Positions 7,994-28,925 of a stretch of DNA of 64,000 nt are shown piece by piece. Below the pieces are notes generated by a model, which worked only from the letters and a program-made list of their open reading frames with translations, had not been told where the DNA came from and did no database searches. Source of the stretch: Novakomyces olei (lineage: Eukaryota); NCBI GenBank assembly GCA_016906335.1, contig JADEYG010000009.1, forward strand, positions 310,001 to 374,000. The letters are read 5' to 3'. Numbering within the stretch: the first letter of the stretch is position 1; every line of letters starts with the position of its first letter. The position numbers and the translations under genes were made by a program.

Positions 7994-10900
7994 TCAAACT
8001 CCGTCCCACTCTCCGCTACGTAAAAGATTACGGAAAACTCCCGATTGTGTACTGAGGCGATCAAACGAGCCCTCTTGAACAATTCGGCCCTGATCAAGAA
8101 CGACGATATGCTGAGCATTCTGCATTAAAGCGCTCGAGTGCGTGACGACAATTACAGTCACATTGCGCAAAGCGTTGATTGTCTGCCTTATTATGTCTCC
8201 GGATTCTGCGTCCAGGGCAGAAGTGCATTCGTCTAAGACTAAAACTTTAGGGTTAGGGTAAAGAGCTCGGGCAATACAGAGCCTCTGCGCTTGGCCCCCA
8301 GACAAGCGGGTGGAATCCTGCCCGACAATTGTCATAAAGCCCTCGGGTAAAGACTCAATATACTCGCGAATATTTGCCTGCTCCGCAACCCGCTGCAGCC
8401 TGTCCATATCGATCTCTGTAGAAGGGTAAGCAATATTGTGTGCGATTGACATTTTGAAAATTGTGCAGTTTTGTGGAACGACCGCGATGGAACAGGATTT
8501 TTCATTTGAATTATAATCAACGGAGTTTCCGTCCAGTTGAATTGACGAATTGCTGCTCAAAAGGCTTTTGGAGTAAAGGCCCAAAAGGCTGGCGACAATT
8601 GTGCTTTTTCCCGAGCCAGACGCTCCTACAATGACGCACTTTGAACCTGCTTCCACACGGAAAGTAATATCGTCCAGCGCCAAACTTGCTTTGTCTGGAT
8701 ACCGGAAGGAAACGTGTTCAAAGGAAATCGCTCCTTTTCCGCCTGCCGATAATGACGTGGAGGGATCGTCACTTGTTACTGAATGCCTTTCTCCAGAAAT
8801 GCCTTCTATTCTCGTTTCTTTTCGATCATTGCCCACAGACGCTTTACCCATACAGACACCATTCGCAAAATCGTTACTGTACAAGGCGACAATACGACGA
8901 CTGGCGACAAAAGCTTTTTCTATTTGTGGTACAAACGAAAGAAGCTGTGATGATGTTGTCATTGAAAATAAGATTAAACTGAACGTTGTCAGCATTTTGT
9001 TGACTGTGTATTCGCCTCTCAAAACAAGGATGACTCCAACCCATATTACAAGCGCTGAGATTGTTAATCTTAATTCAATATAGCTATTTTCGTCTTTTGA
9101 CTTATTTTCTTATTTGCTTATTTAATAATTTCGCCATCATACTTCTGTTCGTGTCTTCATTTCTTCATCACACTACTCACCTTTTGACCAATGGCCCATT
9201 GCTTCCAGTAAAGCATAGCATAGTGCACTACACAGTGCTCTTCTTTGCCCTTCGTTATAACAAAGACTATACAGCAAATCTACTTTATCATAGACAAGCT
9301 GCTCTAGATATAAGCTTTTAATCGTACACATTTTGAGAATATATTCTTGCGTAGTAGCAGAGCATTTGTCGGTGAGAGACTAGGCTATTAGTATCTTAAA
9401 GAAAGCAAATTAATTGGAAAGGTTAGTAGCGTGACATAATGTAAATTATTAAACATTTAATTGAATAAAAATGAAAGTTCCTACCTGAGTCCTCTCCTCG
9501 GTCCAATTAGAAACCCAAGAAAATAATTTGCTGCAGGCTAAAAGCACAGGTGCGACGGCAATCATGACCAGCGAAAGTTTCCATCCAGAAACAAATCCCC
9601 ATACGAGACCGACGAGGGCCATGAAAACTGCGACAAGAATATTGCCCAAAAATTTCCCCAAAATGTTACGCATTTCTTCCGTATCATTAACAACAAGTCT
9701 TGTAAGCACTTGAGGCGAAAGGCCAGCGTCGTCAAACACAGACAGATCACAAGCTAAAATACGGCTAAAAGCTCCGTTGCGTAAAGACTCGATCCACCGA
9801 GCGGAAACGTATTCCAAACAGACAATCTGTAAAAAAGAAAAAACTCCGCTAAGAATAGCAAGCAAAAGCACACAGAGGGCCCATTTCACTGAGGCCTTCG
9901 AGTCCATAGCGTGGAAAAATAAATTGAGAAGCTGTGATAAAACAAAGGCAAATATGGGTGTCATGGCTCCCTCACAAAGGCACATTGCAATGCCCAGTAC
10001 AAGAAGCCATTTCTTTTTCTTCTGAATTTGGTTAAGAGCAAAATTGAACAAGGCGAGCAACGATATTTTATCGGTTTTTTCCCGGTCAGAAAACAGTACA
10101 GCACTAACTAGACCGTATTCTGTATCGCTGCTGCCCGCTGCGACGGGCTTCTCCTTGTCTGAAACAGGTTTGCCTCCTAATTTTCGTTTTGTTTGAGCCA
10201 TATTGCCCTGTTCAAGAACCCCGTCCTCATCAAGGTCTCCATGTTTTTGCCAGAAAGTTGCCTCCTCGTCCGTTGCTCCAATCCACCATTGTCCGAAATT
10301 CTGTGGCGTGATTTTGCTCTGATCATGTTGCAAAGACACTTTATCCGTACCAGTATCGTTTGTTTCCCAGCTCAATGTGGACTCCAGTATTGACTGCTCT
10401 TTTTCATCATTATTCTGATTTAATTGTCCATCCCTTATACTCCCCTGGTCGACAATTTGCAGGTTCTGCAGCTTATATACCATTGAATCCGTGTTGCTTG
10501 CCAACTGAAATGCGTAGCCTTGTTCTCGAATCTGTCCATCTTGAAGGACATAGACAAAGGCATCGTCTTCAATCGCAGGCAGATCGTGAGTTATAAAAAT
10601 CGTCGATTTGCCACGCCGAAAGGCTTTGATAGCATCCATACAAAGCGACCGGGCCACATTGTCCAGAGCAGATCCAATTTCGTCAAGTACAAGAACTGGA
10701 GGGTTTCGGTACAAAGCTCTTGCTAGTGTTATTCTCTGCTTTTGCCCTCCAGAAAGATTTGTTTGGGGTCCAATCACAGTATCGCGCCCGTTTTCGAGTC
10801 GCGAAAACACCTCGGTGCACATTGATATGCGTATAGCCTCCTCTGCCCTTGCGACCTGAATCTCATCGTTTGCGTCCCACATTGGGGACCAAACAATATT

Positions 10901-20213: not shown

Positions 20214-23005
20214 ATGTCTTATGCTGCTGTTGAAGGCGCGGCTCCGCGTCGCCCGGAAATTGGCACGGCGGGTCGGCCATTGAACCTGATTGCGAACCAT
20301 TTCAAGGTGACAAAGTTACCAGACTATAAGATTAGTCAGTGGGCGGTAAGTGGACAGGCAAGAGGAGGGGGTTGCACCGGCAATGAATAATAATATGGGA
20401 AATATGGGCAGTGCACTGGAAAGGGTGGTAAACTGGAAAAAGTGGTGAAAAGTGTGGGGGGACAAGTAAAGCGGCATACAAGGCGAAATAGGATCTGGTT
20501 TATGAATATTGCTTTGGCTAACTGGCAAGGTTAAAATCGCAGAGGCAGATGGCACTGATCTTCGCAAGACTGAGGTTCTTCAGCGCGTGTGGCAGATGGA
20601 CGAGGTGAAGGAGTTGCTGAAAGGCTTTCACTCCAAGTTCATTTATGATGGTAAGAAATATTAGCATAAAGCCTGGTTGCCGTGATTGAATGCTTACGCC
20701 AGGGCGCTCAATGGCCTGGGCAATGGCGTCTGTGGATGTCCCGGAAAAGGTCTCGACTAGTTTTGAAATCCGGGGTAAAAAGGCGCGTACGCTAAAGGTG
20801 GACGTGACGCGTACAATTTCCAGTATTAATATCGCCCTTATAAAGGACTACGTCGAGGGCAAAATCGAAAAGAGTGCTGCCATCGATGGGGCAGTAATGT
20901 TTCTCGATGTTCTTCTTTCTCAGAACCCTAAATCTTCGCAAACAAACTTGGGCCATTCGTTTTTCAGTACTGATGAGCGCAGCCATTTCGAGATTGACGC
21001 TGGTCTTTCTGCGGTTATTGGCTTCTACCAAACTATCAGCTTGGGGCCCTCCAATGTCAATGTCAATGTCGATACTTCGGCGGCAGTTTTCCATAAACCA
21101 GGAAACATTCAAACCATTTTGGCCCAGTACCTGGGCTGCCGGGGACTTGGAGACCTGGAACGTGCTCTCAAGGACGACAGAGCTCATCGTGCTGCCACCC
21201 GTTTCTTCAAGAACCTGTCTTTTGTCGCTGGTCATCGTAGCCCTGGCAAAAACAACAGGCAAAGGGAGCACAAGATCTTTGGATTCTCCCGTGTCGGTGC
21301 GGCCGATGATATCTTTGAGATTACCGACGGAGAAAAGACGCGCAAGTCGTCCGTGGCCGACTACTTTTTGGAGCGGTACAACATCAAGTTGGAGTACCCC
21401 AATCTGCCGTGCATTGAGACTACTCGCAAAGAGAAATTCCCACTGCAAGTTGTCCAGCTGGTTTGGGGACAAAAGTATGGTCCGAAGCTCAGTGGAGATG
21501 CTACTGCCAAAATGATCAAGGCAGTGTGCATGAAACCGGCGGACAAGATTGATTACATCAACGAGAGTGTCCGTCGGCTGAATTGGTCAGAGGATCCCCA
21601 TTTGCTCGAGTTTGGTATCGCTGTTGATAGCCAGATGATGTCGCTCAAAGGCCGTGTCCTTCCAGCGCCCGAATTGCTCTATGGAAAAGACTCTAAAGAA
21701 GGCGAGCGCCTTCGTCCTGTCGGTGGCAGATGGAACCTGCGTGGCCGGACTTTTGTCAATGGCAAAGTCATCAAACGCTGGTGTGTCTCTGTCTTGCCCG
21801 GGTACAATAACAACCCGAGGAACCAGATGAACAAGGGAGCAGTTGAGCGGTTTATCGCTGAGCTCGGCCGCACTCTCCACCTGCAGGGGATCCGGGTTGA
21901 GCAGCGTAATCCGAGCATTACCTTTGGCAATCCGAGAATGAGTATGGACGAAGTGTTCCAGCAGATCCAGGAAGCTTCGCCCGACAGTAAACCTGATCTT
22001 ATCGTCTTTCTCGTGCCGGACAAGACGACAGAGCCGTACAATTCGCTCAAACGTATCTGCGATACACGACTGGGCATTGCCTCTCAGGTGTGCATTAGCC
22101 GCCATGTTCTGCAGGCCAAAACGCAGTACTGTGCCAATGTGGCCATGAAGATCAATGCCAAACTCGGAGGCACCAACCTGTACTTGACCCCGGCAGCTCT
22201 GCCGATCCGCGATGTGCCGACAATAGTTCTCGGTGCAGATGTATCCCACCCTGGAATTGGTGCACAGGGAGGTGCTTCTATTTCCTCCCTGGTGGGATCA
22301 ATTGACCGTGATTTTTCGAAATATGTGGGGGTCGCACGTGCTCAGGAAGCCAGGCAGGAGATGATTACAGACATGAAGGCCATGTTCAAGCAGACCATGC
22401 GTAGTTTCTACCAGAACACTCGAGCCAAGCCTGCCCGCGTCATTTACTTCCGGGACGGAGTAGCTGAGACTCAGCATCTGCAGGTCCTGGAGACGGAAGT
22501 AGCGGCCATGCTCTCCGCCTGCGAGGAACTTGAGCCCGGTTATAGGCCCAAGGTTACTGTCTGTATCGCCCGTAAACGCCACCATACCCGGTTCTTCCCG
22601 GCTAATCCTCACGACGGTGACAAGAACCATAATATTGTGCCTGGGACGATTGTCGATTCCGGTGTTGTCCATCCGACAGAGTACGACTTTTTCATCAGTG
22701 CTCATACGGCACTACAGGGAACTGCCCGCCCCACTCACTACCATGTCATCAAGGACGAAGTCGGGCTGCCTGTTGATCAGTTCCAGCAGCTGGTGCATAA
22801 CCTGTGCTACATCTATCAGCGATCCACAACATCTGTCAGTATCTGTGCCCCCGTTTATTATGCCCATATTGTGGGCAGAAGAGCCCGCTGCCATGATGTC
22901 ACAGATACCAGCGATGAGGTTTCTGTTACTGTCGATGAGCCTAACCAGGTGCTGACTTTGCCGGAAGTTGCTGATCCATTACGCCAGAGCATGTGGTACC
23001 TCTAA
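20214..23005 (+). CDS. AGO1: Argonaute (N-PAZ-MID-PIWI), exons 20214-20345, 20530-20650 and 20703-23005, about 851 aa
   Basis: RP..GTAGRPLNLIANHF, FIYD|GRS, PAZ (SVADYFLERYNIKLEYPNLPCI), GRWNL, KINAKLGGTN, GADVSHP, RQEMI, YFRDGV, KRHHTRFF, GTARPTHY, PVYYAH and the MWYL C-terminus. Confidence 0.97.
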
Positions 23006-23096
23006 GTGGCCTCCAGAGTCAACAATCGAGGCGAGTGAGTGCAGATAAGAGGGGGAATATTTTAATACAGATGGAAAGAATAGGCTAAAAAATAAA

Positions 23097-23119
23097 GGGG
23101 GGGGGGGGGGGGGGGGGGG
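23097..23119 (+). repeat. G23 homopolymer downstream of the AGO1 stop
   Basis: Read directly from the sequence. Confidence 0.95.
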
Positions 23120-23469
23120 ATCAAGAGAAGCGACAAGAATCTTAAATTATCATCAAAGGACATTGGCAGGTCAGTGACCGGGACCAAGGCGGGGAGCGAG
23201 AGTGCAAAGGTCAGTAATAAGAAATCTGACAAAAAGACAGCGGTAAATGCAGCGGTAAAAGAGTTGGAGAAATAAGCTGGACAATGCAAGTAGCCATTGG
23301 GGACACGACGTACCTTGAGAAAAGGCTTTTGATAGTGTGGTCAAAAGCGTGATGATAAGCAAGCAATACAGCGAGGTGAAACGTGTACACAAGACACCCT
23401 TCTAATTGTGTTTCGGTCTTGTCTCCAGGCCTTAATATGGCCAATAATATTTATTTATCTAATTTATGG

Positions 23470-26400
23470 CAGTAATCTATGGTTATTTAAAGCAAATCAG
23501 TGGTGCGGTCTTGATAGAAAATCTGTAATTGCCAGTAATGGCAGTATTACGTTTCAGTCCCTTGTTATTTTCTGCTATATTTGCTTTTTCCCTAGTCATA
23601 AATGATGGGGGCAGGTTATTGGGGGAGATATGGCAGTATGCACACCACGTGCTTGCCCTGTCCTGTCATCGCAAACTTGTGCGACTACGCCACCTGGTAC
23701 CCTAACCCTAACTCTTATTGCATTAAATAAGATTGCAGATGATTTACTAGTGCCTATAGGCTCTCGAGTCAAACCCTCATTTCTTTCAAGCAATGTTCGA
23801 ATTCGCTATTGCCGTCTTTTTGACTATATTAATCTATATCCTCAATGCATACTGCGGACAGGAACGCGTTCAACTTAAAGCGGGTCGTTCATATCTTCTA
23901 AATGCTGTTATCGAATTTTTATCAGATAAGTCTAAATCTAATCAGTCTATTTCCTACGTATTTCCTTGCCTAATCCGATTGCTCTTGATGGCTTGTGAGT
24001 ATCGTGACAAGGCATCAATCATGTACGGGACGACTGCCATCTGGTATCCCACCTGGGATGGAAAACTATACCGTTTCTGCCTTTAATTATAATTCAATAT
24101 ACAGATAGGTTTCCACCCTTTTCAAGATCGCGAGAGGTGTCGTCGCGTACACACTTGAGGACGTTTCATTAATTCTCCGATCAAGATTGATTGGGCTGCT
24201 CGATATGATTTGTTGAATTGCTACGCTCGTCGTATGTGATTGAGAAATTGGATACCAATAATGCAATGCTGATCATATTATGCGTGTATGGTGCACTATA
24301 TGTAACGTACTTGTAGAAATATTGTATTCCTACTTGGCAATTTAGACGACAGGCATTGCAGGAATGAGTGTCAAGTCTGTTAGTCTACAGCTGCCACGAA
24401 CAGTCCGTCATAAGCTCATTGGAATTCGAGTTGAGATATCTCTCTCGGTACACTCGACAACTGCCATCGAGGCTTGGAGATCAGTGGTTAGTATAAGGAA
24501 ATAATAGAGATAATCGCCCCGACTTTGACAGATTTATTATCGATACCTAAAACAGAACTGTCATGGACATTTCAGCGCACAACGCCTTTTTGACAGGCAC
24601 AGCATATAGTCCGAATCTTTTAAATGCGTAATCTAAATTTTATTACAGAGAGCATAGCAATCATGGCTTTTGCGTGTTTTGAATTTTATTGAACCGGGTT
24701 TGACGGTGATTCCCTGTATAGCGACATTGAGAATACAATACTGGAAGACGGTTGAAGCTGTGATTTCTCAAATTTTTCTAAATTGCTTCATTGACAATGC
24801 AAGGATAAACTTCATCGCTGCATAATAAACATGTAATTGGGCCGGTAATATTACTAGATTAATATTGCACAAGCAAAACATTATCGAGTTATCGCGTATA
24901 GAAATGGCCCATTACATGTTCGCTGTCGCAGAAAACAGAATAATGGTATTTACTAATGATACTATTAATGAGGTTACGACGGTGGAAAAAATAAATATCC
25001 GCCGATCTTGGGCGGTTAAAGAAAAGAAAAGACGACGAGGCAAGCGGCATTGAATTGATGCAAGCAATCTTTATTCTCCGATTACCAGAAACACCGCCTT
25101 GCTTCACTGATAAGTAGCTGGGGCAACTGATTATTCACATTAATTCAAGTCCGTTTTCCTGATTTCAATGTTGACAGCGGACGGCGTTGACAGGAGTGTG
25201 ATATCTATATTGCTGGAGGCACAGATAGTGCGGTGGTGATTGATACAGAATCACTTTAAGCGCAGATAACGCAATTGGATGTAGCACTACAAATCTTGGA
25301 GACACTGGCCGGCTATCTTTAAGATTGACACCCGTATCGATAAGTCTATTTTGGTCAGTACCCACCCAAGAAATTGCAATATTCAAAAGTGAATCAGTCT
25401 ATCATGGGTAAATGAAAATAATTGTTCTATCTGTCTAGATTTATGCAACCTTATTGATCCCGGTTTTGCATATCAAAACCTAGCCTTAAAGATAACATAA
25501 CCTGTTATTCAAAAATATCCATTAAACAAGATAGCGAAGCTTCGGCCGAGATTAGTCTCAAATCGGCACAAACCTGCTTACGTCACAATCTGCGGTCAAG
25601 CATTACCGTTTTTGGTCAGGAATGGGCGTAACGAAGAGTGAATGATCGAGAGCGAATATAAAGCAAATATTACATACCGGTTGGCTCCCTTATTATGCCG
25701 GAATTGCTCCTTAAATCTGGCCCGACTGCCGAATGATGTCCGCTTTAGAAGGGCTTGACGGAGATGAACGATCTTGCCGTTTTAGGCATGTAGTGCTGTA
25801 ACTAGAATGACCAAAGAAGCTTAAGACTCATTAGTCATCCAATAGAAATAGATCTGTATTCGAGACAAAACGTTACTCCTTCCTTTTTGATAAAACCCAC
25901 ACACCTCTTACGATACCGAGCATCCGGCCAGCCAATTAAATGCCATTGAGAGGTTCTAAGCGGATCTCACCTTTCCGCCTTACCCGTCAATTACGCATCG
26001 GCGAATAAGATCATAGATGAGAAGGATCGGCGTGCCCACGCAAGTCAAGGGGAAAAAAGGTTATTTACCAGATATTCGAGAAAGCACGTGTCAGAGTCTA
26101 TCCTCTTAGAGATTGGATTCCCGTGCCGAGACCGTCGTACCAGCATTCTGGACCAGGCTCAACATGCCGGAGCCTCTGTCGCCGAGCAAAACAGCAATGC
26201 AAGTTCTTACATTTTGATATTTACAAAGCATCATATTAAATGCAGTTTGCGAATGACGGCAAGGGCAGTAGGCAGCGTACAATACAAACAAGATCCTTAA
26301 TTTACACAATATAATAAACCCGAATTGGCGCAATCAGCAAGAATTGTATTTCCAGGTAGCTCCTTCCGCCATCGTAAAATGCCGAGCAATATATACGTAC
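23470..26400 (+). ncRNA. Candidate telomerase RNA (TER/TR), ends approximate
   Basis: Template-like CTAACCCTAAC at 23702-23712 lies 3 nt after a 14-bp long-range helix (23496-23510/23683-23698). More than 12 further nested helices with G-U pairs run to at least 26263. No credible protein gene is present in this span. The pseudoknot and CR4/5 were not firmly identified. Confidence 0.68.
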
Positions 26401-26850
26401 AATAATGACAGGTGACAGATATGCTATTTTTTCAATTTATCCCGTGCAATATCGGCAAATCTTTGGATATACAATTCTTAAAGTATAATTAAAAATCCCG
26501 TTACGATCCAAAACGGTAATTTGGCACATGTCATATGTATCCAATGTCGATGTCTATGTAACAGGCCATATATGTTATATATGCAACAAAAGAGGGGTGA
26601 GAGATATCGCAAAACAACTGGCTCTCAGATGGAACAGCACTAACCTCGAGCTTATCCTACCGCAAAAATAGACCGGTTCCAAACAAAAAAAAACAAAAAA
26701 AAATCTTTCACCATTCTTTCTCTCGAGCCAGCCCTATCCCCGAAAGTGCCGTTTGTGGGCGTGCACATTCATCTTCTGCACGAATGCCGGTCTTTGTCTC
26801 GTCGCGTTGCGCATTCACCTCAAACAAACGAATCGGCTCATGAGCTGATC

Positions 26851-28925
26851 ATGAGCAACCGTCTTCCGTCTCTATACGAGGTATGATTTTATCAAGACAA
26901 AACCGTTACTGATATATTCTTTCTTTGCCGCAGATTATTCCCGAGCTTAGAGACGCGCGGTCAGGCAATGCCGATTCGCCGACGCCTCTTGTCCAAACCC
27001 CGACTTATCAGCAGTACTCTCGTCGCGCCACTGAGCCACCACAGGAATGTAAGCAACTTGACAAAGACCTTTTCTTCAGTTTGCTTTTTGTTTGTTTGGC
27101 TTTATAATTACGAGTTCAATGGCCTATGAATGATCTGTGGCAGCGCTGCTATGAAAGAGCGGCACCTACAGTTCGTGTGCTTTCGCTTGGTTGCCCATAT
27201 ATTTGTGATTTGTGATAAGCGTTACCAATGCAAAGGGGACACAAATATTACACATATGACCAGTCGAAAGCCTGTCTCTCCCTGACTCGTGACAATTATT
27301 TGCTATTTTTTTTTGACCGACTGGACTTGTCTCACACTTGCGGATACATTTCGACTCTTTCCACAGCGTACTTTACCTTTTTTTTGTTTTGCTTTTGTTT
27401 TGTTTTGTTCTATTTGTTTTGTTTAAGTTAGTATTATATATTTTTATGCCCAAGCTTTAGTTTCCATCATTTGACACTCATCATTTGACCTTTATTTCCG
27501 TATTTCAGGAGATACTTACTTTCAGGGTCGCCGCATAACAGCGCCACTTTTGGCACTGAGGCAAATGATTATAACCGAGGCCGTCGGTTTTCTGCTGCCA
27601 GTGGCAGCGACGCGTCAGCTCAAGCGCATCGCGTATCTGTTGCCTCTCTAACGAGCTTTGGAGACTCTTTAATTGGGACAGCATCAGACGAGAATGCTAG
27701 TAGCATTGCTTCTCCTCCACACTCATTTGGCCGAGGGGAACACGCCTCGAGTGTTGCTCAGCAGCAGCAAACACCACAGACACAGACACAAACGCAATAT
27801 CAGTATAGTCCTCGTTCTTCGTGGATCGGAGCCTCACAATCTTTCTCTGCCCGAGGTCGTGCTCCCTCATCTGCAGGCGGCACCGATAGACGCTTCAGCG
27901 ATATTGGACCTATTCCCCTATACAGTGCTCCTGAGGCCCGTCTTACATCAGCACAATCATCTCTCTCTGAGGCAGCTTCTTCATCAGTCTCTATTGGAGA
28001 CACGAGCGGAGTTCCTTTGTCCTTTTACTCTCCTTTACTGCAACGCCAAGCGCAGCAGTCGGCAATGTACCCTTCACAGCCAGGGATGTACCATCAGCCA
28101 GGGCCACAGCAATTTTATTATCCAAACTACGACGACAAGGGCAGTACTTTTGATGAACAACAGAAACGAGTTGCACAGAATGCTTTTGCCCAGCCAGTGA
28201 GTATTCCACGTCGAAGTACAGCTGAATCCTACTTTCAAGGGTTTTCTCTGGCTGCTAATCCAGGATCAAACGTAGCTGCAACAAGCTCGTCAACAGGTTC
28301 AGGAACAGCAGCAGTGCCTGAAACAGGCTCTGGCTTTAGCGGTGCTACTGCTGCTCCGACTTCTTCTTCCTCAGCTGCAGCATCAAGAGCGATTGATTCT
28401 GGGGAAGGCTCTCCTCGGAGCAAAGTAGCACCAATTGCGTCCGAGTACGAGTTCCGATCTCTCTCTTCTTCTTTTCTGGCGGCGGCAGCAGCAGCAGCCG
28501 CTTCGTCTTCCTCTACGGCTCCCGTTTCTTCTGCCTCAACGCCTTTAAGTGCTGTTGATCCAAGATTTTCCGAACTTGAATTTGGCAGGGACAATAAAAA
28601 CGTAAAGGGGTCTAGCCGGAGATCGAGTAGAACGGACGAACCAAGTGCTGAAGCAAGACGGTCCAGTTCAGAGTCACCAAACAAGACAGAAGAGCGAAGA
28701 CGTCGGGGCAATCTACCTAAATCCACAACTACACTATTACGCAATTGGCTCACTTCACATGCGAGCCATCCATACCCCACGGAGGAAGAAAAGCATAGTC
28801 TGGCTAAACAGACCCATCTTTCAGTTAATCAGATAAGCAATTGGTTTATAAATGCCCGACGTCGGATTTTGCAGCACAAGCGGACGACAAGTACTTCCAC
28901 AGCAACGGCTTCGAGCGATCGATAA
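26851..28925 (+). CDS. TALE-class (TGIF/Cup9/Tos8-like) homeodomain transcription factor, exons 26851-26880, 26934-27048 and 27526-28925
   Basis: Homeobox_KN domain [33 protein letters not shown]...[12 protein letters not shown]. The N-terminus is [15 protein letters not shown]. Splice sites keep the frame open into the 28017 ORF. Confidence 0.9.

Follow-up and report, generated by a model that had tools for sequence, protein, structure and literature searches.

The locus and its telomere-complementary tract

We analysed a window of 64,000 nucleotides (positions 310,001 to 374,000 of the forward strand of contig JADEYG010000009.1, Novakomyces olei, assembly GCA_016906335.1) for a candidate telomerase RNA (TER) gene, that is, a stretch of the plus strand in which a tract complementary to telomeric repeats is preceded by an imperfect helix and followed, much farther downstream, by a composite that joins an Sm-like site to a 5' splice site (5'SS). 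The tract sits in a 3.8-kb gap that reaches from the stop codon of an Argonaute open reading frame (ORF) at 23005 to the ATG of a TALE homeobox ORF at about 26851. The elements on which the argument turns are the following.

23496..23510, plus strand: 5' strand of the proposed boundary helix, ATCAGTGGTGCGGTC; read from the sequence, paired with 23683-23698 in the minimum free energy (MFE) structure, with an energy of -15.7 kcal/mol for the named duplex
23683..23698, plus strand: 3' strand of the same helix, GACTACGCCACCTGGT, which abuts the template tract; read from the sequence, seen in the MFE structure and in the duplex energy, with a pair probability that depends on the context
23699..23712, plus strand: candidate template ACCCTAACCCTAAC, 14 nt complementary to (TTAGGG)n; read from the sequence and found by pattern search
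25348..25359, plus strand: ATTTTGGTCAGT, an Sm-like AU4GG that shares one G with the 5'SS GUCAGU; candidate 3'-end processing signal, with cleavage predicted after 25353

The Argonaute ORF upstream of the gap (20690-23005, plus strand, 771 codons) has Piwi/PAZ clusters in Atlas and is highly divergent, its best relative among 5.8 billion protein clusters being 35% identical (Ascodesmis). An uninterrupted run of 23 G stands at 23097-23119 of the plus strand, about 92 nt past the Argonaute stop, between Argonaute and the candidate RNA. The gap itself contains no supported ORF: Pfam matched none of the nine gap ORFs tested at E<=0.01 (lowest E-value 0.04), and codon-usage scores in the gap ranged from -0.17 to 0.07, compared with 0.054-0.19 in the ORFs that we read as genes. 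The ORF closest to the tract, 23793-24083, starts 80 nt past it, has no Atlas match and no Pfam match at E<=0.01, and has a codon score of 0.027; its sole match in a set of 1.84 billion representatives consists of 15 residues that recur 17 times in one protein, which we read as a repeat artefact.

Further ORFs in the window encode mitofilin, ABC transporters, SMC3, RasGEF/RhoGAP, ATG17 and others. For the SMC3 ORF, identity to known proteins reaches at most 48% (46-48% for Limtongia/Lipomyces and 42-46% for Pezizomycotina among the matches listed). In a quick tree of 22 rows chosen from these matches, which held neither Taphrinomycotina nor Saccharomycetes rows, the query fell inside Ascomycota with 100% SH-aLRT (branch 0.88), without a settled position relative to Lipomycetaceae and Pezizomycotina. 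The window is fungal; its source is an ascomycete for which the collections searched contain no sequence of a close relative.

The tract at 23699-23712 matches CCCTAACCCTAA exactly, as does no other non-coding part of the window. It covers more than one telomeric repeat, with two TTAGGG units present, and its mean unpaired probability is 0.50-0.93, varying with the folding context. A second exact CCCTAACCCTAA, at 8247-8258 of the minus strand, lies within an ABC-transporter ORF, where it encodes ..YPNPK.. in the stretch ALYPNPKVLVLDE; we rejected it as a telobox and regard it as a coding coincidence. By our estimate, a telomeric 14-mer in any of the six registers would arise by chance about once per 30 Mb, and the chance that the tract, taken alone, is a template is perhaps one in four or five. 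This chance would be lower if the organism were a budding-yeast relative, since no known budding yeast has the canonical TTAGGG according to the account in PMC12449055, whereas most other ascomycetes have TTAGGG telomeres (PMC7857110).

The same tract could instead be a DNA-level telobox, such as a Tay1/Teb1/Tbf1-type Myb site, or a telomeric 14-mer of chance or interstitial origin within the intergenic or Argonaute 3' region, with the helix and the Sm/5'SS composite being fortuitous; we give this a little less than an even chance. As PMC12449055 describes these proteins, Teb1, which acts at promoters, needs two TTAGGG units, and Tay1 also binds TTAGGG sequences that are internal and lie in promoters, but no supported gene lies within promoter reach of the tract here: the nearest candidate is the unsupported ORF 23793-24083, the homeobox ATG is 3.1 kb off, and of the upstream gene it is the end that lies here, not the start. 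A non-coding gene that has escaped annotation may nevertheless be present. The estimated chance frequency of the 14-mer, as well as the possibility that the organism is related to budding yeasts and lacks TTAGGG telomeres, would speak for an element of this kind.

The helix beside the tract

The initial annotation had proposed that the helix is a template boundary element (TBE) ending 3 nt before CTAACCCTAAC. Both strands were found where it had placed them, and, paired by hand, they form 11 Watson-Crick and 3 G-U pairs, with one C/A mismatch and one bulged C. The helix does end 3 nt before CTAACCCTAAC, but there is no spacer: it abuts the tract directly because the telomere-complementary run is 14 nt long (ACCCTAACCCTAAC). 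In the MFE structures computed by RNAfold for both 23450-23760 and 23496-23732, the long helix is paired and the template is unpaired.

In folding energy, however, where the annotation had looked for an advantage over shuffled sequence, the helix region is no better than shuffled or random controls. The plus strand of 23450-23760 gave a folding z-score of -0.89, with 17 of 100 shuffles as stable, and the minus strand gave -0.14, with 38 of 100 as stable; for the span 23496-23732, which was picked to begin and end on helices, the z-score was -1.56 (11 of 200 shuffles as stable). When the 20 nt before the template were paired with the 373 nt upstream of them, the best duplex had an energy of -18.1 kcal/mol. 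Dinucleotide shuffling of the upstream region, repeated 1000 times, gave a duplex at least this strong in 36.9% of cases, and of 3000 random 20-nt anchors taken from the window, 12.8% did as well or better. Folding 251 nt gives the helix a mean pair probability of 0.86 and folding 311 nt one of 0.70; in folds of 621, 1101, 1521 and 1881 nt it is 0.02, 0.05, 0.01 and 0.29, respectively. In the 621-nt MFE structure the two helix strands have other partners and the template is paired with 23613-23624, and forcing the helix, a free template and a free Sm site into a 1874-nt fold costs 7.4 kcal/mol. The proposed boundary helix is correct as sequence and not significant as structure. It had also been argued that a plain DNA telobox has no need of such a geometry, which is true, but the argument has no force because such a helix arises by chance in 13-37% of cases, a frequency that a telobox reading accommodates. 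The lesson we draw is that a hand-drawn 15-nt imperfect helix beside a motif carries almost no weight alone, whereas the distal Sm/5'SS signal (next section) does have weight.

Other features near the tract, together with the two strands of a helix that exists in our model only, are listed below.

23441..23492, plus strand: AT-rich stretch with CCAAT at 23441-23445 and TATTTAAA at 23484-23491, read from the sequence; possible promoter
23485..23494, plus strand: 5' strand of a 10-bp AU-rich helix at the position expected of a core-enclosing helix, from a constrained fold (model only, without statistical support)
23530..23543, plus strand: GUAA-capped hairpin within the enclosed arm, lengthened to 7 bp in the MFE structures (311-nt, 621-nt and 237-nt-span folds)
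23632..23657, plus strand: GGCAG/UUGCC plus GCAC/GUGC hairpin within the enclosed arm, read from the sequence and seen in the MFE structures
23713..23732, plus strand: 7-bp hairpin UCUUAUU/AAUAAGA directly 3' of the template tract, present in every fold
24675..24684, plus strand: 3' strand of this putative core-enclosing helix, which begins at 23485, from a constrained fold (model only)

As the initial annotation had reported, the GNRA hairpin TGCCA-GTAA-TGGCA is present at 23530-23543 and the hairpin GGCAG..GCAC-ACCAC-GTGC-TTGCC at 23632-23657, and RNAfold places both of them, along with the 7-bp hairpin, in the MFE structures of 23450-23760 and 23496-23732. The sequences AGAAAAT (23516-23522) and ATTTTCT (23567-23573) are there as well, but the helix that they were said to form occurs in neither of these two structures. 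The 7-bp hairpin (23713-23719/23726-23732) was thought to leave the template single-stranded; the hairpin exists and the template is single-stranded in short folds, but not in the 621-nt MFE structure. In the Rfam scan, the bacterial VrrA model hit the GNRA hairpin and a U-rich stretch (23525-23620, plus strand) with 31.9 bits and an E-value of 0.0027 to 0.014; given its gathering score of 50, we rejected this hit as a chance match in a fungal genome.

Local hairpins that are predicted reproducibly would also suit a transcribed region that is not a telomerase RNA, namely a long 3' untranslated region of Argonaute or some other long non-coding RNA in which the tract has no templating role. The region is on the same strand as Argonaute, begins 490 nt past its stop and has no coding signal. 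Such a transcript would leave the perfect 14-nt telomeric complement unaccounted for and the Sm/5'SS composite unexplained, and we consider it unlikely.

A candidate downstream processing signal and the search for core elements

About 1.65 kb downstream of the template, on the same strand, we found a signal that goes beyond those of the initial annotation, the composite AUUUUGG/GUCAGU. Both strands of the window, 128 kb in all, contain 29 GTCAGT sites and 113 AT4-7G sites, and 25348-25359 is the only place where an Sm site and GTCAGT abut; when any of six 5'SS hexamers is allowed, 3 cases of an abutting Sm site are seen, the present one among them, and 7 cases of an Sm site within 30 nt. At the density of the window with this site removed, 0.027 (abutting) to 0.08 (within 30 nt) composites would be expected in the 1.7-kb zone, figures that have to be read with the caveat that the composite was spotted during a targeted look for it. 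An ab initio intron catalogue (292 candidates) was too noisy to gauge how rare GUCAGU is in this organism.

There are precedents for such an arrangement. In PMC4299874, the Sm site and the 5'SS of S. pombe TER1 are described as sharing one nucleotide, and TER1 of S. cryophilus and S. octosporus as using GUCAGU, a hexamer seen in 3/5702 and 1/5350 introns that stalls splicing past the first step. The Sm consensus given in PMC3603654 is AU5-6GR for yeast and GAU3-4G for Candida. We estimate that the Sm/GUCAGU composite raises the odds of a telomerase RNA several-fold, and a telobox would not account for a same-strand composite at a TER-like distance, of which only 0.03-0.08 are expected.

The motif TTTTGGTCAG was found twice, 260 nt apart, at 25348-25359 and 25608-25620 of the plus strand. 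The second copy, GTTTTTGGTCAGG (about 25608), comes after a hairpin, GAGA-UUAG-UCUC (25548-25559), whose form agrees with a P6.1-like stem-loop. We rejected this copy as the main 3' end: the A at its front is missing, and its GUCAGG is a poor 5'SS.

The fungal TER core, as outlined in PMC11870620 and PMC3592445, consists of a core-enclosing helix, a boundary element, the template and a triple-helix pseudoknot, to which a P6/P6.1 junction (a 4-bp stem with an NUNGN loop) is added outside budding yeasts. Our searches for these elements, and several further results, weigh against a TER gene at this locus. A strict search for a triple-helix pseudoknot downstream of the template returned nothing, and a relaxed one returned 81 combinations in about 5 clusters, compared with 31.8 +/- 35.6 in shuffled sequence, 10% of 40 shuffles reaching 81, although single-sequence searches are weak for pseudoknots. 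Five P6.1-like hairpins (4-bp stem, NUNG(N) loop) occur in 23713-26800, none of them in 25100-25345, the 250 nt ahead of the Sm site, and 25100-25353 folds no better than its shuffles (z-score +0.22). The missing P6.1 junction is not decisive, the motif being absent from budding-yeast junctions. The leader 23440-23497 showed no significant pairing to three downstream regions, for which 60%, 92% and 71% of shuffles were as good. The whole candidate had a folding z-score of -2.31 (19 shuffles), compared with -1.63 for its reverse complement, -2.12 for a coding control and -1.05 for another gap, so the global structure of the candidate is not distinctive.

An ascomycete telomerase family is among the Rfam entries, and a search of the whole window with Rfam 15 at gathering thresholds detected no telomerase or other credible family; at E<=10, none was matched in 22000-27000, 23400-24400 or 24400-25700 either. 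A few snoRNA, miRNA or intron models with E-values of 3.5-8 were rejected as chance. To these results must be added that the helix does not exceed chance and drops out when longer stretches are folded; that GUCAGU is followed only by UUGAU and AUAAC, not by a canonical CUAAC branch site, whereas the few obvious introns of the window, judged by eye, mostly have CUAAC; that the 14-nt tract lies slightly above the limit of two repeats which PMC3603654 gives for telomerase RNA templates; that the SMC3 tree does not decide between Lipomycetaceae and Pezizomycotina for the organism, and no known budding yeast carries the canonical TTAGGG (PMC12449055); and that other ORF-poor gaps of 2-4 kb exist in the window, so that little can be concluded from the gap by itself. 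Without a junction, a pseudoknot or an Rfam match, the odds of a TER gene fall somewhat. A telobox gains from the same results, as no pseudoknot, three-way junction, core-enclosing helix or Rfam support was found and the global folding z-scores resemble those of control regions, but the region downstream of the tract has no match to a snoRNA or other Rfam family either, which speaks against it.

Relatives of the locus were sought in metagenome contigs. A 23-nt pattern across the helix strand and the template had no match there, and an 18-nt pattern matched 17 loci, about half of them degenerate telomere arrays, none of which aligns to 22901-26900 beyond 32 nt. At one locus (L009, 2001-2031), 28/32 nt are common with the template and the next 14 nt; it has no similarity past those 32 nt, and we rejected it as a relative. 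A literature search turned up no description of a telomerase RNA from Mucoromycota, a point that is moot for an ascomycete.

A candidate telomerase RNA gene and its known counterparts

Taking these lines of evidence together, the explanation that we prefer is that the locus is the telomerase RNA gene of an ascomycete, at a probability of about one half. Given such a gene, it is a little more likely than not that the named helix is its boundary element; the conjunction of the two is a tentative proposal, and rather doubtful. We infer that the RNA would be transcribed on the plus strand from about 23480-23496 and would end at about 25353, giving a length of about 1.86 kb, with ACCCUAACCCUAAC (23699-23712) providing both template and alignment for the synthesis of TTAGGG. 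The helix 23496-23510/23683-23698 would close an arm of about 200 nt and, because it abuts the template on its 5' side, may act as a yeast-type template boundary element that physically halts reverse transcription. The 3' end would be produced by the first splicing step at G/GUCAGU, between 25353 and 25354, beside the Sm/Lsm site AUUUUGG.

By analogy, a helix abutting the template and a template that is unpaired in local folds match the description of the yeast and Aspergillus TBE as given in PMC3603654, and the predicted size and element order would fit fungal TERs as presented in PMC11870620 and PMC3592445. The abutting helix and the absence of a promoter-target gene raise the odds of a TER gene a little. 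The interpretation put forward in the initial annotation is therefore plausible and unproven, having gained one independent support in the Sm/GUCAGU composite.

A bolder version would be the TER of a deep ascomycete lineage with no other sampled members that combines a TTAGGG (vertebrate-type) template with a boundary arm of yeast type, about 200 nt long, and with 3'-end formation through the first splicing step at a GUCAGU fused to the Sm site, that has no P6.1-type junction, and that is perhaps made from the 3' part of the Argonaute transcript; taken as a whole, we regard this combination as very improbable. The TER of Ustilago is reportedly cut from an mRNA. Telomerase RNAs evolve fast and are for this reason missing from most fungal annotations. 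If confirmed, a TER from a lineage without a close sequenced relative would inform how the boundary element varies across Ascomycota and how the three-way junction and spliceosome-made 3' ends change.

Among the systems with which the locus can be compared, the double telobox of promoters bound by Teb1, Tay1 or Tbf1, as described in PMC12449055, also has two contiguous TTAGGG units in non-coding DNA. It differs in that no supported downstream gene lies in promoter range here, and a DNA element would leave the same-strand Sm/5'SS composite unexplained. The resemblance to budding-yeast TLC1/TER1 would lie in the Ku or Reg2 arm, which, in the account of PMC3603654, is an arm of a few hundred nucleotides beside the template that is closed by the boundary helix. 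Unlike the candidate, budding yeasts are without a canonical TTAGGG template in the account of PMC12449055, and we recognised no Ku-type or Est1-type element in the candidate.

The TERs of Aspergillus and Neurospora (Pezizomycotina) share with the candidate a TTAGGG-type template, an Sm-like site followed by a 5'SS and, by its predicted size, a length of about 1.5-2 kb. A yeast-type boundary helix, which in the TERs covered by PMC3603654 is about 8 bp long and mostly 2 nt from the template, would be a further point in common. They differ in having AUAAGU/AUACGU and a conserved GCUAACU branch point, according to the descriptions in PMC3603654 and PMC4299874, whereas here GUCAGU is present without CUAAC; neither their compact P6/P6.1 junction nor a match to an Rfam telomerase model was found here. 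Compared with fission-yeast TER1, the candidate has no P6.1-type junction before the Sm site, no supported pseudoknot or core-enclosing helix and no canonical branch site, and its template is a perfect TTAGGG complement, unlike the Schizosaccharomyces repeats (PMC7857110). On the other hand, it would follow fission-yeast TER1 (S. pombe, S. cryophilus, S. octosporus) in the core order of boundary helix and then template, as laid out in PMC11870620, and in what would be a kilobase-scale RNA, and, as far as the descriptions in PMC4299874 extend, it shares the one-nucleotide overlap of Sm site and 5'SS with S. pombe and the rare GUCAGU with S. cryophilus and S. octosporus.

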